64,000 bases of DNA, taken from IMG/VR virus record IMGVR_UViG_3300037067_016777, positions 1 to 64,000 of that record; one strand, 5' to 3'. How positions within the stretch are numbered: position 1 is the stretch's first letter; each line of letters begins with the position of its first letter. Under the pieces are notes generated by a model. It saw nothing but the letters and a program-made list of their open reading frames with translations, made no database searches and was not told the DNA's origin. Below are positions 51,072 to 60,422 of this stretch, in pieces. The position numbers and the translations under genes are program-made. This stretch comes from a virus (Duplodnaviria; Caudoviricetes).

Positions 51072-51103
51072 GGAAGATTGGAAGATTGGAAGATTGGAAG
51101 ATG
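51072..51103. repeat. GGAAGATT tandem repeat x4
   Basis: Three perfect copies plus GGAAGATG. Confidence 0.9.
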
Positions 51104-51279: not shown

Positions 51280-52167
51280 ATGAAACTAGCATTACTGTGT
51301 GAAGATTTCGATAGCCAGTTCAGAAACCAGCAGTTATCATGGGGAGAAAGAAATCGTGAATTTATCAAGATAAGAACAGAGGAGACGAAAAAAGAATTAT
51401 TGCGATTGGCAGTAAATGGTGCCAGACGACCAAAACCAACATCGTCAGATGCAAAAGAGCGACGGTTAGCAAATTCACTGGGCAGTTATACCGGCAAGTC
51501 GCGTTCCTATGATAGAGAATTCGATGATAAAATTCGTGCTTTAGCACCGCAATGGTTCCTCCATGTAAATGAACATAAAGAGGAATTGTTGACGTTGGCT
51601 AAAAGTGGTGCCGCTAGGCCGAGCTTTGCTAAAAATAGATCGCGGAAAGAACGAATACTGGCAGGAAGATTGAATAATTATATACAACCAACTAATAAAT
51701 CATATGACGCCGAATTCGTCGAGAAGTTGAGAAAGATAGCTCCAGGATGGCTAGTCGATAAGGTAGCGGAAAACAGAAAGAGGATATTGGAAATCGCTAA
51801 AAGTGGAGGAAAACGTCCCTGGATAACATCTACTGACCTGGAAGAGAAACGGATAGCATTAGCACTCAATAACTATCTCAAAAAGAGCCATCCCTCTTAC
51901 GATAGCAGATTTGTTGAAGAACTACAAAAAATTAGACCAGATTGGTTTCCACAATCAGTTGTGGCCGAGAATAAAAGAAGACTGCTAGCAATAGCTAAAA
52001 GCAGCGGAGCGCGTCCAAAGTTCACAGACGACAAGCAACTAGCACGAGCTATTATGACTTATACTGATAGAAATGGGCCATCCTATGATGAGGCGTTCGA
52101 TGCAGAAATTCGCAGATTAAGGCCAGATTGGTTCGGACGTGGATATCATCCTAGACGAGGTGTCTGA
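51280..52167 (+). CDS. Tandem-repeat protein 1 (4 modules of ~65 aa)
   Basis: Repeat K..LL..A.SG..RP...E.RLA..L..Y...YD.EF...IR..P.WF. Confidence 0.85.
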   Translation: MKLALLCEDFDSQFRNQQLSWGERNREFIKIRTEETKKELLRLAVNGARRPKPTSSDAKERRLANSLGSYTGKSRSYDREFDDKIRALAPQWFLHVNEHKEELLTLAKSGAARPSFAKNRSRKERILAGRLNNYIQPTNKSYDAEFVEKLRKIAPGWLVDKVAENRKRILEIAKSGGKRPWITSTDLEEKRIALALNNYLKKSHPSYDSRFVEELQKIRPDWFPQSVVAENKRRLLAIAKSSGARPKFTDDKQLARAIMTYTDRNGPSYDEAFDAEIRRLRPDWFGRGYHPRRGV

Positions 52168-53084
52168 TGAAACTCAGTTTGCTAATAGAAGATTTCGATA
52201 GCGAATTTCGCGATGATTATACACCATACGCTGATAGAAATAAAGAACATGATAGATTAAGGATAGCAGAGACGAAACGAGAAATAATAAAATTAGCGGC
52301 AAGCGGTGCAAAACGACCAAACCCAAAATCAAAAGACCCAAAAGAAAGACGACTAGCGAATTTTATAAACTCCCATGCAAGCCCCGCATCTCACGTTTAT
52401 GACATGAAATTTCGTGGCGCTTTGCGTGAAATAGCCCCGCATTGGTTTAGCTGGGCAGTAGAGTTAAAAGATGAATTGCTAAATCTTGCTAAAAGCGGCG
52501 CAAAACGACCGAACATCAGATCCAAGGATCCGAAGGAAAGAAAGCTCGGGCAGGCGTTTGATAGCTATTATCGCCGAACGTCCAAAGCATACGATCCAGA
52601 ATTCATTAAGAAAATCAAAGCGATAGCTCCAGAATGGCTAATATATAAGACGCCAAGAGTAGAAGAGAACATACGGAAGCTGTTAGAGATAGCCAAGAGC
52701 GGAGGGCAGCGGCCTAGTTGGATGTCGAGCGATCCTGAAGTTAGGCGATTAGCAAACGCATTAACCAGCTATATGAGAGTGGATTCTACAACCTATAGAA
52801 AAGACTTTGCCAATCAATTGCGTAAATTGCGGCCAGAATGGTTTATAGATATACTGGTAGCGAAGCATAAAAAACGGATACTAGAAATAGCTAAGGGCGG
52901 AGAGAAGCGACCACGATATAATGCTGGTCCTGAGGAGAGGCGATTAGCAGTAGCACTTGCTCTCTATATTGATAAATCTGGTAACTCGTATGATAAGGAA
53001 TTTGATGAGATGCTTCGCAAAATGAGGCCAGATTGGTTTATTAGGAGACATAGAGGATACGGCGACAAGAAACAACCGCTCTAA
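52167..53084 (+). CDS. Tandem-repeat protein 2 (4 modules)
   Basis: Same repeat; TGATG coupling. Confidence 0.85.
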   Translation: MKLSLLIEDFDSEFRDDYTPYADRNKEHDRLRIAETKREIIKLAASGAKRPNPKSKDPKERRLANFINSHASPASHVYDMKFRGALREIAPHWFSWAVELKDELLNLAKSGAKRPNIRSKDPKERKLGQAFDSYYRRTSKAYDPEFIKKIKAIAPEWLIYKTPRVEENIRKLLEIAKSGGQRPSWMSSDPEVRRLANALTSYMRVDSTTYRKDFANQLRKLRPEWFIDILVAKHKKRILEIAKGGEKRPRYNAGPEERRLAVALALYIDKSGNSYDKEFDEMLRKMRPDWFIRRHRGYGDKKQPL

Positions 53085-53094
53085 GAGGTGTCTG

Positions 53095-54234
53095 ATGAAA
53101 CTCAGTTTGCTAATAGAAGATTTCGATAGCGAATTTCGCAGGGAATATGTGCCATTCGGGCAGCGGAACCTTAAATATATTAGGTTAAGAATGGAGGAAA
53201 CTAAGGAGAAATTATTAGAGCTAGCAAGAAGCGGAGTGAAACGCCCAAAATATAAATCGCTTGATCCAGAAGAAAGGCGACTAGCTCGTGCATTAAATGA
53301 TTTTACAAGCCTAGACGTTGCACGGCGTGACCCAGAATTCTGTGCTAAGATATATGCCCTCGCTCCAGGATGGTTTGATCCAGACAGGAAAGCTAGGGTA
53401 ATAGCTACAAAAAAGAAGCTATTAGAGATAGCGAGAAGCGGGGGAGAGCGACCAAGATACAACTCTACCGATCCAGAAGAAAGACGACTAGCGATCTCAT
53501 TAACCCGTTATGCCGTTCATCCGGATACAAAAGATGACGAATTTGCAAAAGAGATATTCGTAGCAAGGCCAGAATGGGCACCGGGGTATCGCACAATCCT
53601 AATGGCAAGAACAAAAGAGAAATTGCTGAAGATGGCTGCGAGTGGAGCCGCACGCCCGGACCGATATTCAACAAACCGGGAAGAGGCTAAATTAGGAATA
53701 GCCCTAAATAATTATACTACTAAGAGCCAGCGACAATATGATGCAGATTTCTACAATAAACTCGTTAAAATCAACCCTGATTGGGTTGATAGATTGGATC
53801 AGATATATAAAAGAGTGGCAGAGACGAAGAAGAAACTGCTGGAAATGGCAAGGAATAACGAAAGACGACCAAACATCAGATCTAATAATCCAGAAGAAAG
53901 ACGACTAGGAATAGCTCTCAGCGTCTATGTCAACAAATTAACAAGATCTTATGATGCAATATTTACAAGAGAAATCCGTGCACTTAGACCAGATTGGTTT
54001 GATTCAGACAGAAAAGCAATAGTGGCAGAGACGAAGAAGAAACTGCTGGAAATGGCAAGGAATAACGAAAGACGACCTCAATACAAGTCAAGCGATCTAG
54101 AAGAGAAGCGATTGTCTAGCGCATTAATGACTTACACTTCAACCGGTAGTGGTTCTTACGACGAAGCATTTACAAGAGAAATCCGTGCACTTAGACCAGA
54201 TTGGTTTGATTCAGACAGAAGAGGAGCAATATGA
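53095..54234 (+). CDS. Tandem-repeat protein 3 (5 modules)
   Basis: Same repeat; 55 bp around the start identical to protein 2. Confidence 0.85.
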   Translation: MKLSLLIEDFDSEFRREYVPFGQRNLKYIRLRMEETKEKLLELARSGVKRPKYKSLDPEERRLARALNDFTSLDVARRDPEFCAKIYALAPGWFDPDRKARVIATKKKLLEIARSGGERPRYNSTDPEERRLAISLTRYAVHPDTKDDEFAKEIFVARPEWAPGYRTILMARTKEKLLKMAASGAARPDRYSTNREEAKLGIALNNYTTKSQRQYDADFYNKLVKINPDWVDRLDQIYKRVAETKKKLLEMARNNERRPNIRSNNPEERRLGIALSVYVNKLTRSYDAIFTREIRALRPDWFDSDRKAIVAETKKKLLEMARNNERRPQYKSSDLEEKRLSSALMTYTSTGSGSYDEAFTREIRALRPDWFDSDRRGAI

Positions 54235-54249
54235 TATTAGTATAACGTT

Positions 54250-56499
54250 TCACGATACTCCTAGGGCTATATCTGGTGGGAGCATCTGTATCCGATGAAG
54301 TACAGTTTCTACATCAAGATTCAACTTATGCCCCCATTCCGCTGCCGTGAGCTTCTCATTATTATAAATGAATTTCGTGACTTGATGGCCTACCATTATA
54401 GCCTTGTGGAATTTAGCATAATTTGCCCCTAATTTTCTTGCCCACTCAGCCATTAATAATGTCTGACCATTATATTCATATCTTGTCCTGCCCACGCCTC
54501 TACATCTCAATTTCACCACAGCCGTGAATCTGCTTGCCCACTCCCTTAGCGTCAACGACTCACCATTATATGTGAATAACTTTGTGTCATATGCTTTTAA
54601 TTTCCTCTGTTTATAGCATTCGACAGCTAATGCCTTTTCTACTGGCTGTCGAATCAAACGACGCTGCATTGCTTTTACTGAGCACTGTCTTCTTTTTGCC
54701 CATTCCTCTATTGTAAGAGATTCGCCATTATAGGTGAATAGATGCGTTGGAGTCAGATTATGCAGTCGCTCCAACAGAACCTCTATTGGTATTTTGCTAG
54801 AATAAACAGCAAGCGTGTCTGGCGATATATCAAATGTTTTTGCCCATTTATGCAATGACATCGTTCGGCCGAGATATGTATATTTCTTCACATTTGATGA
54901 TTGATTCGTCTTTTGTTCTGCGTCGGGACTTACCTGATTTGCCTGGATCTGATCTGTTTTGATATGCTCCGCTTGTGCTTTCTCGACCTCAGCGAAACAT
55001 GTGAGGCGTTTAACCGCCTTTGATTCTATCTGACGTATCCGTTCTCTCGTAACCTTGTATTTTACAGCTATTTCTTGAAGACTTAATCCTTGTGCACGTA
55101 ATTGCAGTACCTTGATGGCTCTCGCTGACAATTTGTCGTTCTGAGATTTATGTGATTTGTTATACCATTCCACGACTTCATCTAGTGATATGCCGAATAT
55201 GTTTTCAGGCTTCGAGACGTTTCGACAACAAGCATATTCCTTCTCCGCTTCTCGTCTCTCATATAGCATAATGAGATGCGACATCTTATGTCTTCCAACT
55301 ATCGACAAATAATTTAATATGTGCTGGTTCGACTCGAATTTATCAATATTGTTCTTCATTAAGATTGTGCAAGCCGCTGTCCAAGCAAGATCTTCAATAT
55401 CTTCGTCAGTACAAGGTTTTCGACGCACTTGATTGCAGTAAAACGTCAATACAGACACAATCATATCGGCAATCGGTTTGCCATCACCCGTTAAGAAATA
55501 ATTCTTAAAAGCTGACAACATATCAAATCTAGCGTACTTCGCTGGCAATTTTACGAAGTGCTGCGATTTTCGCATCGGATTTATGATAATATATGGATAA
55601 TCCGGGGCGTGGCTTGCTTTACGAGTTTTATGCCTAGTCCTGACATTTCTTCTTTTGTGTTTTCTCTCTGCTTTTCCGAGCCTATAACGCTCTACTGCTT
55701 CTGCTAATGAATGGGAAGCAACGTAGCCTTGAAACGTCATCTTACTCACATTTAACTCTGTCGCCCATTCTCTACATGTCAACGATTTACCGTCGTATTC
55801 GTATCTCGGTACAACATATTTCACATTTATTGCCTCTTCAATCGGCAATCGCCGTAACCGCCTCGACATCTGTGTCATAGATAGGCCCAGCTTCTGAGCC
55901 CATTCAGCGGTTGTTAATGATTCGTCGCCAAATGTATACCTCCTAGTCCTGTTCTCTTGTACAGCCTTCTGAAATTTTTCGTTATCAAGTGCTATTTCAT
56001 GCGAATAGCTATTCAATCTGTTTCGCAATTGCGAAACAGAGATTCCTAACTCGGTCGCCCACTCTTTGGTTGTTTGTGATTTTCCATTGCACTTATACCG
56101 CCTCGCCCTATTTGCCTCAATAACCGCTTTGAATCTTTCATTATCCAACGCCACATCGACTGCATAACGCCTCAACCTGTGTCTTAGTTGGTCATATGAA
56201 ATGCCCAATTCAATTGCCCACTCATCCAACGTTTTCCCACCATGCGTGAACTCTTTTGATATTACACCAGCGACTTTCCTGTACTCCGTGTTATCTAATG
56301 CCACCTCCGGGATATAGTCCCTTAACCTGCGCAATAGCCGTCGTGGTGTAATCCCTAACCTAGATGCCCACTGATGCAATGCCAGCGTTTCGCCGTCGAG
56401 CGTCAGTATCTTCTCATATTCCGGTTTTGGATAGATATCGACGTTATATTCATCACTATCAAGGGCAATAGTAAAACTCACACAGTTAGCGTTGTCCAT
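54250..56499 (-). CDS. Sigma70-like factor flanked by ten HTH-type repeats
   Basis: Region 4 LS.R...VL.LR..GLSLQEIA..Y.VTRERIRQIE.KA..RL; possible region 2 (EDIEDL...KFE...YL); repeats Y.YNGESLT..EWA..LG. Confidence 0.8.
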   Translation of the reverse strand: MDNANCVSFTIALDSDEYNVDIYPKPEYEKILTLDGETLALHQWASRLGITPRRLLRRLRDYIPEVALDNTEYRKVAGVISKEFTHGGKTLDEWAIELGISYDQLRHRLRRYAVDVALDNERFKAVIEANRARRYKCNGKSQTTKEWATELGISVSQLRNRLNSYSHEIALDNEKFQKAVQENRTRRYTFGDESLTTAEWAQKLGLSMTQMSRRLRRLPIEEAINVKYVVPRYEYDGKSLTCREWATELNVSKMTFQGYVASHSLAEAVERYRLGKAERKHKRRNVRTRHKTRKASHAPDYPYIIINPMRKSQHFVKLPAKYARFDMLSAFKNYFLTGDGKPIADMIVSVLTFYCNQVRRKPCTDEDIEDLAWTAACTILMKNNIDKFESNQHILNYLSIVGRHKMSHLIMLYERREAEKEYACCRNVSKPENIFGISLDEVVEWYNKSHKSQNDKLSARAIKVLQLRAQGLSLQEIAVKYKVTRERIRQIESKAVKRLTCFAEVEKAQAEHIKTDQIQANQVSPDAEQKTNQSSNVKKYTYLGRTMSLHKWAKTFDISPDTLAVYSSKIPIEVLLERLHNLTPTHLFTYNGESLTIEEWAKRRQCSVKAMQRRLIRQPVEKALAVECYKQRKLKAYDTKLFTYNGESLTLREWASRFTAVVKLRCRGVGRTRYEYNGQTLLMAEWARKLGANYAKFHKAIMVGHQVTKFIYNNEKLTAAEWGHKLNLDVETVLHRIQMLPPDIALGVS

Positions 56500-56509
56500 A
56501 ATACTAATG

Positions 56510-56577
56510 TCATAGCACGAAAAGCGGAAATTATTAATCTCCTTAATAGTTAATAATTTCCGCTTTTCGTGCTATGA
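56510..56577. promoter_or_regulatory. Perfect 28-bp inverted repeat forming two identical divergent promoters
   Basis: TCATAGCACGAAAAGCGGAAATTATTAA-12nt-TTAATAATTTCCGCTTTTCGTGCTATGA. Confidence 0.85.
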
Positions 56578-56638: not shown

Positions 56639-57025
56639 ATGAACAATAGAGTCCAAGGTGCAAACGCAGAAAATTCCATTCCAATCCTCATAAAAACGAA
56701 GGTTGGTTATGTAGAATTGTTGTTATCATTCATATCAAGCGATAACATCGAGAACTTCCCAGACAATGCAAGAGAATGTGCCGTAGAAGTGGACGGCCAA
56801 TGGATGGTACCTGGAATAACAGGGGCGAGAATGTTGCTGGGTCCATTAATGGAAAACGTGCCCGCTGGTGATGGAGGAGTGCCTATAAAACCAGAAATGG
56901 CACAACGAATAGCAGAAGGCATCGACCTGCCTGAGTTTCTGGCTAAATTCCGTGGTGAAGTAGACGACAATAGTATCGTCGCACGGATTATAGACGCATT
57001 TTTACAGAAGTATCGTGGCTACTAA
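56639..57025 (+). CDS. Hypothetical protein
   Basis: ORF downstream of the right-hand promoter. Confidence 0.6.
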   Translation: MNNRVQGANAENSIPILIKTKVGYVELLLSFISSDNIENFPDNARECAVEVDGQWMVPGITGARMLLGPLMENVPAGDGGVPIKPEMAQRIAEGIDLPEFLAKFRGEVDDNSIVARIIDAFLQKYRGY

Positions 57026-57398: not shown

Positions 57399-60300
57399 CT
57401 AGTAATCGTAGTCTTCGTCGTCGTCATCTTCCGTGGCCGGTACGTATTCGACTTCCATGTCTTTGACTTTATCGTAGAACTTAATCTCATCAACCTTCAC
57501 GCCACAGCCGTATTGATTGGCCTGCACGTAAAGCTTGTTTATTGTCCATCCGTTGATATCAATCCCACGCTCGATGACGTAACCAACCATATTCTCGATC
57601 CATCTAGGCCAGAGATTACTTGGCACCGACAGATCTTCTTTGTGATCTTCCCACAGATCGCCGTCGTCATCAACGTAATCTTCGAGGAACTTGGTACGTT
57701 GCTCTTCATACCAAGCTGCTCTAATCAATTCATACGCTTTCTGTTCTATGGCATGGATCGGCCTTCTCATCAGCCGTTCCTTCTTCTTCGCCTTCTCCGC
57801 TTTCTGCTCCTCTACCACGAACGAAGTGATGTTATCTTCGAAGATGATAACGATGGTTTGATTTCTCCAAGTCAGATCGTCTGGTTTTAGAGAAATACCA
57901 CGGCAACCTGATAACCTGAAATGCAACTCGTCTTGCTTCTTTTCCCATCTGACGCGAACTGTGGCACATTCCGGGCTTTCGACGCGACCTGTCATCAATT
58001 TCTTCGTCATCGAAGCGTGATATTGCAAGTAGTAGAGACAGACGCTCTCGTCCTTCGGATCGGCAGCCACCGCAAGCGGCTTTAGCCACGGCCTACGACC
58101 GTGCTCACGTCTTCCATCAAGAAATTCTGACCATTCAGGTGGATTCGCAGCCACATCAGCCAATTCTGCCAATGCGTAATCAGCAGCCTGCTTCCGTTCT
58201 GCGTCTGTCAGATGTTCTTGTGATCGTGCACCGATTAGCCATTCACTCCATCGCGGATGACTCCACACCAATTGCCAACTCTCATGTCGCTTGTCGACGA
58301 CGGCCCACTCTTTCATGGATGCACGACGCACAAACACGCCACAATCAAATTGGATGATATTCTCACCGTTTGTAGATGCAAGAACCGATCCAAGCTGCGT
58401 GTCAGCACACAATTTCCAGATTTCCTCTTGGACCCAAACATTCTCGGAATTCTCGCACCGTAGAACTGCATAGCTTTTGTCTGGTCGGTAGAAGATCGCC
58501 AGAGCCTTGTCGTCTCGAAGTTTTTCTACCGCTTGCTCGTGTGCTTCGGCCAGTGCCTCATTGTCGAGCAATTTCCGACGACCGAACTCGGCCACAATCA
58601 TTCGCAACGCTTTGGCGTCTTCTGACAGTAACGCCCGATGCTCTCGTGTCTTGAATTTCCACCATTTGATCAATGCATCAATACTACGTTCTGCTCTCGC
58701 AAATGATACATTGTGTTTTCCTGCAATGACGCCGATCAACAATTGGCGAAATGGAGCTTCTTCCTCTGCCTCCTTTTTCTTGATCGCGAGTGCGACCTTG
58801 AGTAGCGGAATCATATTGAGATAATGGTGCCGGTTCGTCCGCGACCGAATGTAAAACTCGATATCAGCAACAGTGACGCTATCGATGTTGATAATGAAAT
58901 CATCGGCCTTGTAGATCAGATAACTCACGCGTGGCGCATTTTGATTCCGGCCCCGCCAGTTGTTGTGGTCTGACTTATATAGGAACCTAAAACTTCTTTC
59001 ATCGACCTTTCTATCGATGATGTGGATTTCGTCGCTTGATGGCCTGTAAGCATGCTTGGTCCCTTGCCGCTCATGCAGATCGCGTCTGCCAGCATAATGA
59101 CCCTCAAACTCACCGATAATCCTACAACCAACCTCCAATTCACCATTCACGGCACCTAGCCATTTGTCAAAATCGGGCCGTCCTGTTCCAAGCAGATTCT
59201 CTGCGTCGTATCGCAGCGTTACGTGCTTCTGTCCTTCCAAGTTGCAGACGTTTATCGGCTCGTTGATGGGAAGCGGATGAAACACCTTCGTTCGATCAAG
59301 CAGACCTTGGATCATAATTAGGACGGTGTAGAAACGACGCTTCTTCGCTTCTGCCTTATCCATAGCCTGCATATACTTCGCAGAACCCGGCGTCAGCGGT
59401 TTCTTCACCTTATCGTGCGTATCCCAATCGGTGTGCGACTCATAGAAGAAGTGCTCGAATTCGTCTTTTCGCGGCAAGAACACTTCATCGACCCACAACG
59501 TTGTGTGAATGCGATATAGGTTCTCGCCATTGCGAATCAGAATGTAGAGGCATTTGTTTTGCCGGTTCAACTCTGAATTGACAAACGGATTGTCGTCGTA
59601 GAATTTCGGATTACGACGCGGCTTGATTGCAACAACGCCCCTGATCTCAGGGAGAACTTGTTGTAGATGCTCGGGGTCACTAACCCATGCGTCGAACTCT
59701 TCGACCGCTTTGAAATCGAGGCCACCACGTTTTGCAAAGTCTGCAGCTACCGCTGATTCTTCGTCCATGAATAAAACTTGTTGCCGAATGACGATCTTCT
59801 CGTCTTCTGATGCTGGTTCACCAGACTTGATTCGGACAATCTCTTCATCCTGACCAAGATATGCATTAATCATGTAAATGGCTTCCTGTGCCATTTCGAT
59901 CTGTCGTGTCAGAATAGCCGTCTTGGCTTTCAGAATCAGTGCTTGCTCTTGAATGAGCGTTTGCAATGCCGAGTGACGCTTCGCTATTTGATTCTTCGTG
60001 ACTGCGAACGCCGTCTTCACTCGCTTGAGATTCTTGGCGGCAATAGCCGGGTTCGTACGACTCGCCATTGCAACGAGATCGGTGCTGGTCGGCTGCCTTT
60101 GTGCTGGCCGTGTGTTGTCGGCCAATAGTTTCGGTGTCGAAGCCGACTCGATAAGGTTGTCTTGGCGGTCGCCGACTGCATGTAAACTCGACATAAGATC
60201 GGCAAGCTCATCCTGTCGTTCTCTAATCCCCTCTGGAGCATATGCAAAATGATCCAAGAAAGTATCGAGCGAGAACGTCCAAGTACTTTCACCTTGGATG

Positions 60301-60422
60301 AGCGTTACTTCATCCCCCTCAATCTCCGACAAATACCATAGACTTCCGACCTCACACCGGTTGCTGTCTCGGTCTTCGGACTCGTCGATACGCTCAATCA
60401 GTCTATAATATCCTTGTTCCAT
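57399..60422 (-). CDS. Large conserved phage protein with N-terminal coiled coil
   Basis: 1007-aa ORF; RQ.VLFMDEE..FD.W...LPE.RGVVA..PRR motif. Confidence 0.85.
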   Translation of the reverse strand: MEQGYYRLIERIDESEDRDSNRCEVGSLWYLSEIEGDEVTLIQGESTWTFSLDTFLDHFAYAPEGIRERQDELADLMSSLHAVGDRQDNLIESASTPKLLADNTRPAQRQPTSTDLVAMASRTNPAIAAKNLKRVKTAFAVTKNQIAKRHSALQTLIQEQALILKAKTAILTRQIEMAQEAIYMINAYLGQDEEIVRIKSGEPASEDEKIVIRQQVLFMDEESAVAADFAKRGGLDFKAVEEFDAWVSDPEHLQQVLPEIRGVVAIKPRRNPKFYDDNPFVNSELNRQNKCLYILIRNGENLYRIHTTLWVDEVFLPRKDEFEHFFYESHTDWDTHDKVKKPLTPGSAKYMQAMDKAEAKKRRFYTVLIMIQGLLDRTKVFHPLPINEPINVCNLEGQKHVTLRYDAENLLGTGRPDFDKWLGAVNGELEVGCRIIGEFEGHYAGRRDLHERQGTKHAYRPSSDEIHIIDRKVDERSFRFLYKSDHNNWRGRNQNAPRVSYLIYKADDFIINIDSVTVADIEFYIRSRTNRHHYLNMIPLLKVALAIKKKEAEEEAPFRQLLIGVIAGKHNVSFARAERSIDALIKWWKFKTREHRALLSEDAKALRMIVAEFGRRKLLDNEALAEAHEQAVEKLRDDKALAIFYRPDKSYAVLRCENSENVWVQEEIWKLCADTQLGSVLASTNGENIIQFDCGVFVRRASMKEWAVVDKRHESWQLVWSHPRWSEWLIGARSQEHLTDAERKQAADYALAELADVAANPPEWSEFLDGRREHGRRPWLKPLAVAADPKDESVCLYYLQYHASMTKKLMTGRVESPECATVRVRWEKKQDELHFRLSGCRGISLKPDDLTWRNQTIVIIFEDNITSFVVEEQKAEKAKKKERLMRRPIHAIEQKAYELIRAAWYEEQRTKFLEDYVDDDGDLWEDHKEDLSVPSNLWPRWIENMVGYVIERGIDINGWTINKLYVQANQYGCGVKVDEIKFYDKVKDMEVEYVPATEDDDDEDYDY

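Follow-up and report, generated by a model that had tools for sequence, protein, structure and literature searches.

The open reading frame at positions 54250-56499 (minus strand) of the window analysed here, positions 1-64,000 of a 269,105-bp jumbo-phage record estimated to be 74% complete, is open over 749 amino acids and encodes a protein, P0001, in which a predicted sigma70-family core is flanked on each side by five HTH repeats. Our preferred reading, to which we give a probability of roughly 55%, is that P0001 is an accessory early phage sigma70 factor of ECF architecture that carries a dispensable DNA-anchoring array of ten modules. An initial annotation had described it as a phage sigma or sigma-mimic whose promoter choice is extended by a multi-HTH array; the sigma70-family core stood up to analysis but the array-extended promoter choice did not.

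From N- to C-terminus, P0001 is organised as five HTH repeats, a basic linker, sigma2, a linker, sigma4, a further linker and five HTH repeats. The N-terminal array (repeats 1-5, residues 28-272; 55684-56418, minus strand as for all parts of the protein) was delimited with a leave-one-out HMM, an AlphaFold model with a pLDDT of 79.5 and a match to phrog_3377. It is followed by a very basic linker (residues 273-297; 55609-55683), with 12 K/R against a single D/E, and then by a family-specific beta-hairpin and an ECF-type sigma region 2 (residues 298-423; 55231-55608), placed by the model, VIA-align, a profile and Atlas, sigma2 proper covering approximately residues 326-420. Alignment of homologs locates in region 2.2 the DAED-type beta'-clamp-binding motif D367-I-E-D370 (55390-55401). 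In region 2.3, the conserved, family-specific motif F-x-S-x-x-H-x-x-N-Y-L (residues 388-398; 55306-55338) would correspond in position to the -10 specificity loop of ECF factors. About 30 residues, with one helix, separate the end of the sigma2 helix (residue 423) from Pfam region 4 (residues 455-499; 55003-55137), in which TRERIRQIE forms a primary-type recognition helix. Finally, the C-terminal array (repeats 6-10) extends over residues 536-746 (54262-54894).

Region 4 passes the Pfam model Sigma70_r4 (PF04545) with 41.7 bits against a cut-off of 24.1, and its TRERIRQIE helix aligns with region 4.2 of RpoD/SigA, in agreement with the RpoD-like region 4 initially noted. The segment resembling region 2, initially called weak, is real by profile, fold and motif evidence. 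Pfam Sigma70_r2 (PF04542) gave no match on P0001 or its homologs, and hhalign of the region-2 alignment against one single sigma sequence gave no signal; a region-2 profile without region 4 aligns to residues 10-87 of SigW with an E-value of 0.047. In the AlphaFold model of the core (pLDDT 80.8), VIA-align matches sigma2 to ShbA (9M84; Z 8.9, rmsd 3.7, 107 aligned residues), SigW (5WUQ; Z 8.0, rmsd 3.7, 92 aligned) and CnrH (4CXF; Z 7.4, rmsd 2.6, 84 aligned); for a helical domain, Z values of 8-9 count as modest. The C-terminal part of the same model matches sigma4 domains, sigma factors dominate the match lists of the three structure searches (VIA-align, Foldseek and Atlas), and the Atlas matches of the core include Sigma70_r2 clusters. 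With an ECF-type sigma2 fold obtained by model and profile, the reading of P0001 as an isolated HTH regulator is not borne out.

Five homologs spanning the whole core were retrieved with residues 294-510 as query. For viral contigs, the core protein and the whole-core alignment returned nothing or generic region-4 matches only, and the useful query was the region-2-only alignment. The model TIGR02937 (cut-off 42.9 bits) is matched at E ≤ 1e-5 by five of the six cores; P0001 scores 35 bits, below the cut-off, and a 215-aa core-only homolog 44.8 bits, above it, over positions 5-163 of 165. At 31-34% identity the homologs keep invariant E-D-x-E-D in region 2.2, F-x-S-x-x-H-x-x-N-x-L in region 2.3 and R-E-R-x-R-Q-I-E in region 4.2; judged from the alignment, the invariant core positions are the sigma-functional ones. 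D-[ILF]-E-D, aligned to the SigW motif, is present in 6/6 homologs (D, E and D being invariant), and this DAED-type motif of region 2.2 is known to contact the beta' clamp helices (PMC8999054, PMC8103513). None of the six members keeps the Q-E pair found after DAED in SigW; P0001 has W/T there instead.

PF04539 (sigma3) and PF00140 are absent from the reported matches of P0001, and RpoD models match its region 4 only (~31 bits against cut-offs of 354-555). We rejected an identity as a primary (group 1) sigma factor of the RpoD/SigA kind, as regions 1.2, 2 and 3 of RpoD type are not matched. From its sigma2 fold, short linker and sigma4 without sigma3 (compare PMC7826278), the core of P0001 is predicted to be a sigma70-family core of ECF-like architecture, and a primary-type -35 helix is combined with this architecture. 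P0001 resembles the ECF sigmas SigW, ShbA, CnrH and E. coli sigmaE in having sigma2, a short linker, sigma4, no sigma3 and a DAED-type motif (PMC7826278, PMC8999054). It differs from them in its region 4.2 of primary RpoD type, in H-x-x-N-Y-L in place of the usual T-W-L, in being phage-encoded with no anti-sigma seen, and in its HTH-array extensions, which are absent from the excerpts of the literature that describe ECF extensions.

Co-folding with beta', proposed together with the initial annotation, lends weak support to a docking of the modelled sigma2 of P0001 on this subunit. Residues 1-345 of E. coli beta' served as a stand-in for the host subunit. The sigma2 part scored 0.55 against 0.25 for the best control, a score that may reflect memory of solved sigma-beta' complexes; the runs share at least 55% of contacts and the partner pLDDT is at least 68. 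Of 80 solved pairs, 58 attained the co-folding mark, as did 2 of 110 mismatched pairs, but only 7 of the 80 solved pairs, together with both mismatches, attained it with a score of no more than 0.60.

The ten repeats lie at residues 28-70, 79-120, 131-173, 184-226 and 229-272 in the N-terminal array and at residues 536-579, 584-626, 638-670, 671-702 and 703-746 in the C-terminal one. Tested with a leave-one-out HMM made from the nine others, every repeat reaches 23.5-56 bits, and the best of 500 shuffled controls stays below 10 bits. The initial count of five plus five repeats of ~45 aa was thus right, but two are shortened and not one, repeat 8 being without the recognition helix and repeat 9 without the last helix. 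In the model of the N-terminal array, the repeat is a beta-hairpin followed by three helices. The repeats match phrog_3377, an HNH endonuclease, with an E-value of 1e-33 but over positions 87-187 of 196 only, which correspond to its C-terminal, non-catalytic HTH part. Among viral structures, those closest to the repeat belong to HNH endonucleases and a NUMOD1 protein, and the repeat is, as had been suggested, a module of homing-endonuclease type. Pfam NUMOD1 (PF07453) gave no match on repeat pieces; structural neighbours include NUMOD1 proteins. Among solved structures, no clear relative of the array was found (best Z 4.3, Foldseek E > 0.08), and weak fold matches of the repeat are 8B6E (Z 4.0) and pSK1 Par (8CSH, Z 4.0). 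An HNH homing endonuclease identity was rejected for P0001, as the phrog_3377 match is confined to the HTH part and a pattern search of the protein found neither an HNH nor a CxxC motif; the initial remark that no HNH motif is visible was correct.

In related phages, the same module occurs as a single copy after an HNH-like domain (repeat HMM 15 bits, E 2e-4), in HTH-only proteins of 266, 300 and 441 aa, and as two copies in HA-like repeat proteins. The repeat is a mobile module of the P0001 phage clade. Like the HTH modules of HNH and GIY-YIG endonucleases (phrog_3377, I-HmuI, I-TevI, NUMOD1), it is a unit of beta-hairpin plus HTH; unlike these endonucleases, P0001 has no nuclease domain and ten copies of the module. 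Reuse of such modules without the nuclease is known from the Paulinella DB-sCTPs (8B6E; PMC10319021); the module of P0001 ends in a third helix where sCTP-23166 of Paulinella has a third strand.

The clade contains relatives with genomes of 364 and 388 kb (99-100% complete). Homologous sigma cores carry 0, 2, 2, 6, 7 or 10 repeats: five on each side in P0001, five N-terminal and two C-terminal in P0002, six N-terminal in P0003, two C-terminal in L002 and in L003 (the second copies being weak), and none in the 388-kb phage. The end of P0002 after its seventh repeat is either a true stop or an artefact. In the 388-kb phage, the 215-aa homolog is reduced to the core and an HTH-rich gene lies ~4 kb away. 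P0001 and P0002 are 87-89% identical in the core and 70-89% in orthologous repeats; as the repeats come near the identity of the core, the arrays are not decaying, and this sequence comparison suggests that they are retained while being more variable than the core.

The complete genome G002 (363,885 bp, 100% complete) has no core homolog detectable with a profile that finds the gene of the 388-kb phage at E 7e-75. It keeps the neighbouring genes in synteny, but different small genes follow its equivalent of the divergent promoter pair. The sigma gene thus behaves as an exchangeable cassette, and its absence from G002 led us to reject an essential middle/late sigma of the gp55, gp28 or gp36 type. 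As the number of modules in relatives ranges from 0 to 10, and some have no such gene, the modules probably serve as an additional DNA anchor and do not form a new promoter code. Moreover, because core-only members exist, we infer from this unrooted comparison that the simplest history is an accretion of modules onto an existing sigma and not the insertion of a sigma into an endonuclease; the proposed derivation from a homing-endonuclease scaffold was not borne out.

The P0001 gene sits among small accessory genes. The three repeat genes at 51280-54234 converge with it, as the initial annotation had stated; they appear to belong to a different expression class, since they have no early promoter and bear the MKLxLLxE N-terminus discussed below. 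The 269-kb contig (74% complete) yielded no gene for RNA polymerase beta, which counts in favour of our preferred reading. In a search for the host, the promoter pattern gave scattered chance matches in bacterial genomes and was no more frequent than the control in 151 genomes from the phylum of a planctomycete MAG, and the region-2 profile had no match in 121 genomes of this phylum. Elsewhere in the phage genome, a 346-aa gene at 247812-248852 that is kept clade-wide has a weak Sigma70_r2 match (E 0.055). This match, the clade-wide conservation and sequence motifs are the basis of a gp55-like label for the gene, which PHROG, NCBIfam and PDB searches did not confirm.

The P0001 gene is preceded by an early-type promoter, TTAA-N13-TCGTGC-TATGAC (56510-56537, minus strand). 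Together with an identical divergent promoter (56550-56577, plus strand) that serves a 128-aa gene at 56639, this promoter makes up a perfect 28-bp inverted repeat, each promoter being one of its arms. As it lies 9 nt ahead of the P0001 ATG, a near-leaderless transcript is expected. It belongs to the TTAA..TCGTGCTA class, with ~37 copies of TTAA-N13-TCGTGC-TATRA in this phage genome, in which position -7 is not conserved and -33 is A, not G, in 31 of 37; the clade early promoter, unusual in kind, likewise has A at -33, often with C at -7. These promoters had been put forward as the targets of P0001. G002 has 43 copies (control 0) though it has no core homolog, so the class does not need P0001 and the proposal is not supported; another factor reads these promoters, most likely the host primary sigma. 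When the early promoters were masked, upstream motif discovery returned only RBS-like and AAATAC/AAAGATA-like words, and no third bipartite class. A role of the inverted repeat as a dedicated operator is weakened by another perfect inverted promoter pair at genome 73.6 kb, away from the P0001 gene.

These promoters also bear on the idea that the arrays read flanking DNA sequence-specifically and so widen promoter choice, perhaps to a TATGA subclass that would include the promoter of the gene itself. In this genome 13 of 33 promoter copies are TATGA; the variant makes up 1 of 43 in G002 and 1 of 51 in the phage with the core-only form. A Fisher p of ~1e-5 for this contrast overstates the evidence, as the lineages are few and the copies are related by duplication; the five promoter copies adjoining repeat-bearing sigma genes (in this genome, L002 and L003) are all TATGA. 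The P0001 and L003 genes both follow a near-perfect inverted promoter pair, and module strings give homing endonucleases long targets (PMC10319021). However, with related promoter copies and few lineages, the association of TATGA with repeat-bearing sigmas may be drift, and the inverted pair at 73.6 kb lies away from the P0001 gene. Furthermore, three TATGA copies occur in G003 (64% complete), where no homolog was found, and among the phage promoters no flanking motif is conserved outside -37..-8. Position -9 is tolerant for sigma70. The number and side of the repeats vary freely, with 0-10 of them on either side of homologous cores, and the module also occurs on unrelated proteins, so that the initial claim of an array extending promoter choice was not upheld. 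We consider a sequence-specific reading by the arrays quite unlikely, and it is very doubtful that P0001 is a modular sigma in which swapping the HTH repeats that flank the core reprogrammes the promoters used, for example TATGA or host promoters.

Two other readings concern what the core does. P0001 could be a sigma mimic or decoy for host shut-off that occupies core RNA polymerase or host TTGACA -35 boxes without starting transcription, while the phage promoters, whose -35 is TTAA and whose extended -10 is long, would escape; we regard this as unlikely, although several observations agree with it. The region 4.2 helix is of primary type and invariant while most phage promoters have A at -33, the upstream regions yielded no target promoter class, the gene lies among early accessory genes with a core-only form that begins MKLxLLxE, and gp47 of phage 7-11 blocks sigma70 by pre-binding core (PMC8948821). 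Yet F388, S390, H393, N396, Y397 and R403, on the -10-reading face, are conserved at 31-34% identity and would be unneeded by a pure decoy, and sequestration of core would starve the phage promoters themselves if the host sigma reads them. That P0001 is a former sigma, now a plain DNA-binding regulator or DNA-coating protein without RNA polymerase contact whose arrays are the functional part, seems to us very unlikely. The HTH-only proteins of relatives would fit with it, as would a dispensable gene and a region 2 too divergent for Pfam, but the core is the most conserved part of the protein (87-89% against 70-89%) and exists without repeats, its DAED-type motif is invariant, and co-folding with beta' speaks weakly for contact.

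For P0001 as an accessory early sigma70 factor with an anchoring array, we can propose the following sequence of events. The strong early-type promoter and its spacing point to a near-leaderless mRNA, probably made early. Sigma2, recognised by fold and motif, would use its DAED-type motif to engage the beta' clamp helices of the core RNA polymerase of the host, with sigma4 engaging the beta flap. The resulting holoenzyme would compete with the host primary sigma and open a small set of promoters, in phage or host DNA, whose -35 would resemble TTGA and whose -10 would be specific to the family. The C-terminal array may lie upstream of the -35 and the N-terminal one near sigma2, giving a low-specificity grip on DNA; these arrays are gained and lost between strains. 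Several points weigh against this reading: the missing Pfam Sigma70_r2 match, the P0001 score below the TIGR02937 cut-off, the modest Z values, the replaced Q-E pair, upstream regions that yielded no separate promoter class, and arrays that are not decaying. The core-only homolog begins with MKLNLLAE, and the pattern MKLxLLxE is found on six proteins of this genome where 0.06 are expected. It resembles the capsid-targeting signals of T4 internal proteins and may mark a packaged, injected protein. If it is such a signal, the sigma family would act as infection begins, whichever route it takes.

Phages without an RNA polymerase of their own encode a sigma70-family protein that redirects the host enzyme (PMC8948821, PMC7824862), and Group 2 jumbo phages (Iyer et al. 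2021) are among the sigma-encoding phages (PMC7824862). P0001 shares with 7-11 gp47, phiEco32 gp36, T4 gp55 and the SPO1 middle/late sigmas its predicted membership of the sigma70 family, and its fold matches the sigma chain of 7D7D (Z 7.4). Known phage sigmas are core genes of their groups and drive middle or late genes from known promoters; unlike them, P0001 is accessory, stands behind an early promoter and belongs to a family with up to ten extra HTH modules. In 50,697 GenBank phage records, no match to P0001 was found beyond region 4. Endonuclease parts have entered transcription in WhiA, where a domesticated LAGLIDADG endonuclease is joined to an HTH transcription factor (PMC11701221); WhiA, a conserved activator of bacteria whose nuclease domain is dead, is not a sigma with HNH-type HTH arrays. 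Our literature searches turned up no sigma factor bearing arrays of this kind, and a sigma core with HNH-type HTH arrays looks like an undescribed design.

If the arrays did set specificity, engineered sigma factors could be modelled on this design. The natural series of 0, 2, 6, 7 and 10 repeats on one core offers a test of anchoring, promoter escape and specificity. As its relatives show, the early promoter of the clade is read without P0001. Altogether, while phage sigmas are known as essential middle/late switches, the P0001 family would be accessory, and early or possibly injected.

The early promoter class (TTAA-N13-TCGTGC-TATRA) recurs from window 4013 to 61719, in the remaining genome and in the related phage genomes G001 and G002; it is clade-wide. 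It is atypical of sigma70 promoters in having an A at -33 and a conserved 11-bp extended -10 element; a C occupies -7 in 34 of 46 copies sampled from two relatives. Several genes behind this promoter are leaderless, with a gap of 5 nt between hexamer and ATG. A leaderless early gene on the minus strand at window 57399-60422 encodes a 1007-aa protein that matched nothing in family searches and is conserved far above most neighbours (95% identity in G001, 70% in G002).

Some promoter copies are arranged in near-perfect inverted pairs: one of 28 bp at window 56510-56577, and one of 32 bp (94%) ahead of the repeat-bearing sigma homolog gene of locus L003 (L003:895-974). A perfect convergent pair of 32 bp lies at L090:1594-1670 (genome 73.6 kb). 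These pairs suggest recombination or conversion among promoter copies. In the sigma homolog of locus L002, an N-terminal extension with paired, zinc-ribbon-like Cys motifs takes the place of an HTH array (L002:892-1180). Ahead of the repeat-gene cluster, at window 51072-51103, the short unit GGAAGATT occurs about four times in tandem.

In three related phages, G002 (L341:1516-2316), G001 (L087:4896-6221) and G004 (L342:877-1779), the early regions encode nuclease-free proteins that consist for the most part of the HNH-type HTH module, present 3-6 times. G007 has a 459-aa frame (L340:1267-2646) in which an HNH-like domain is joined by a single HTH module and, at the C-terminus, a PD-(D/E)XK domain (PF24608, 57 bits); here an endonuclease may have inserted itself in frame with another nuclease gene.

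Close to an intein-containing helicase gene, a 346-aa gene (L089:3813-4853, genome 247812-248852) encodes a product with 81-90% identity throughout the clade, a weak Sigma70_r2 match and a Cys-rich insert. It is probably a late, gp55-like sigma; library searches gave no confirmation of this identity. In one relative, G008, the conserved gene is interrupted by an in-frame insert, probably an intein, yielding a 784-aa frame (L329, G008:8820-11144).

Finally, six proteins of the present genome, against 0.06 expected by chance, start with M[KRH]LxLLxE (window 51280, 52167 and 53095; genome 183746, 208511 and 208793). The same N-terminus is found in relatives on the core-only sigma, a homolog of the sigma core devoid of HTH repeats (L087:9935 and L085:9935). 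We take this start to resemble the capsid-targeting peptides of T4, and by analogy the core-only sigma may be a packaged and injected protein.
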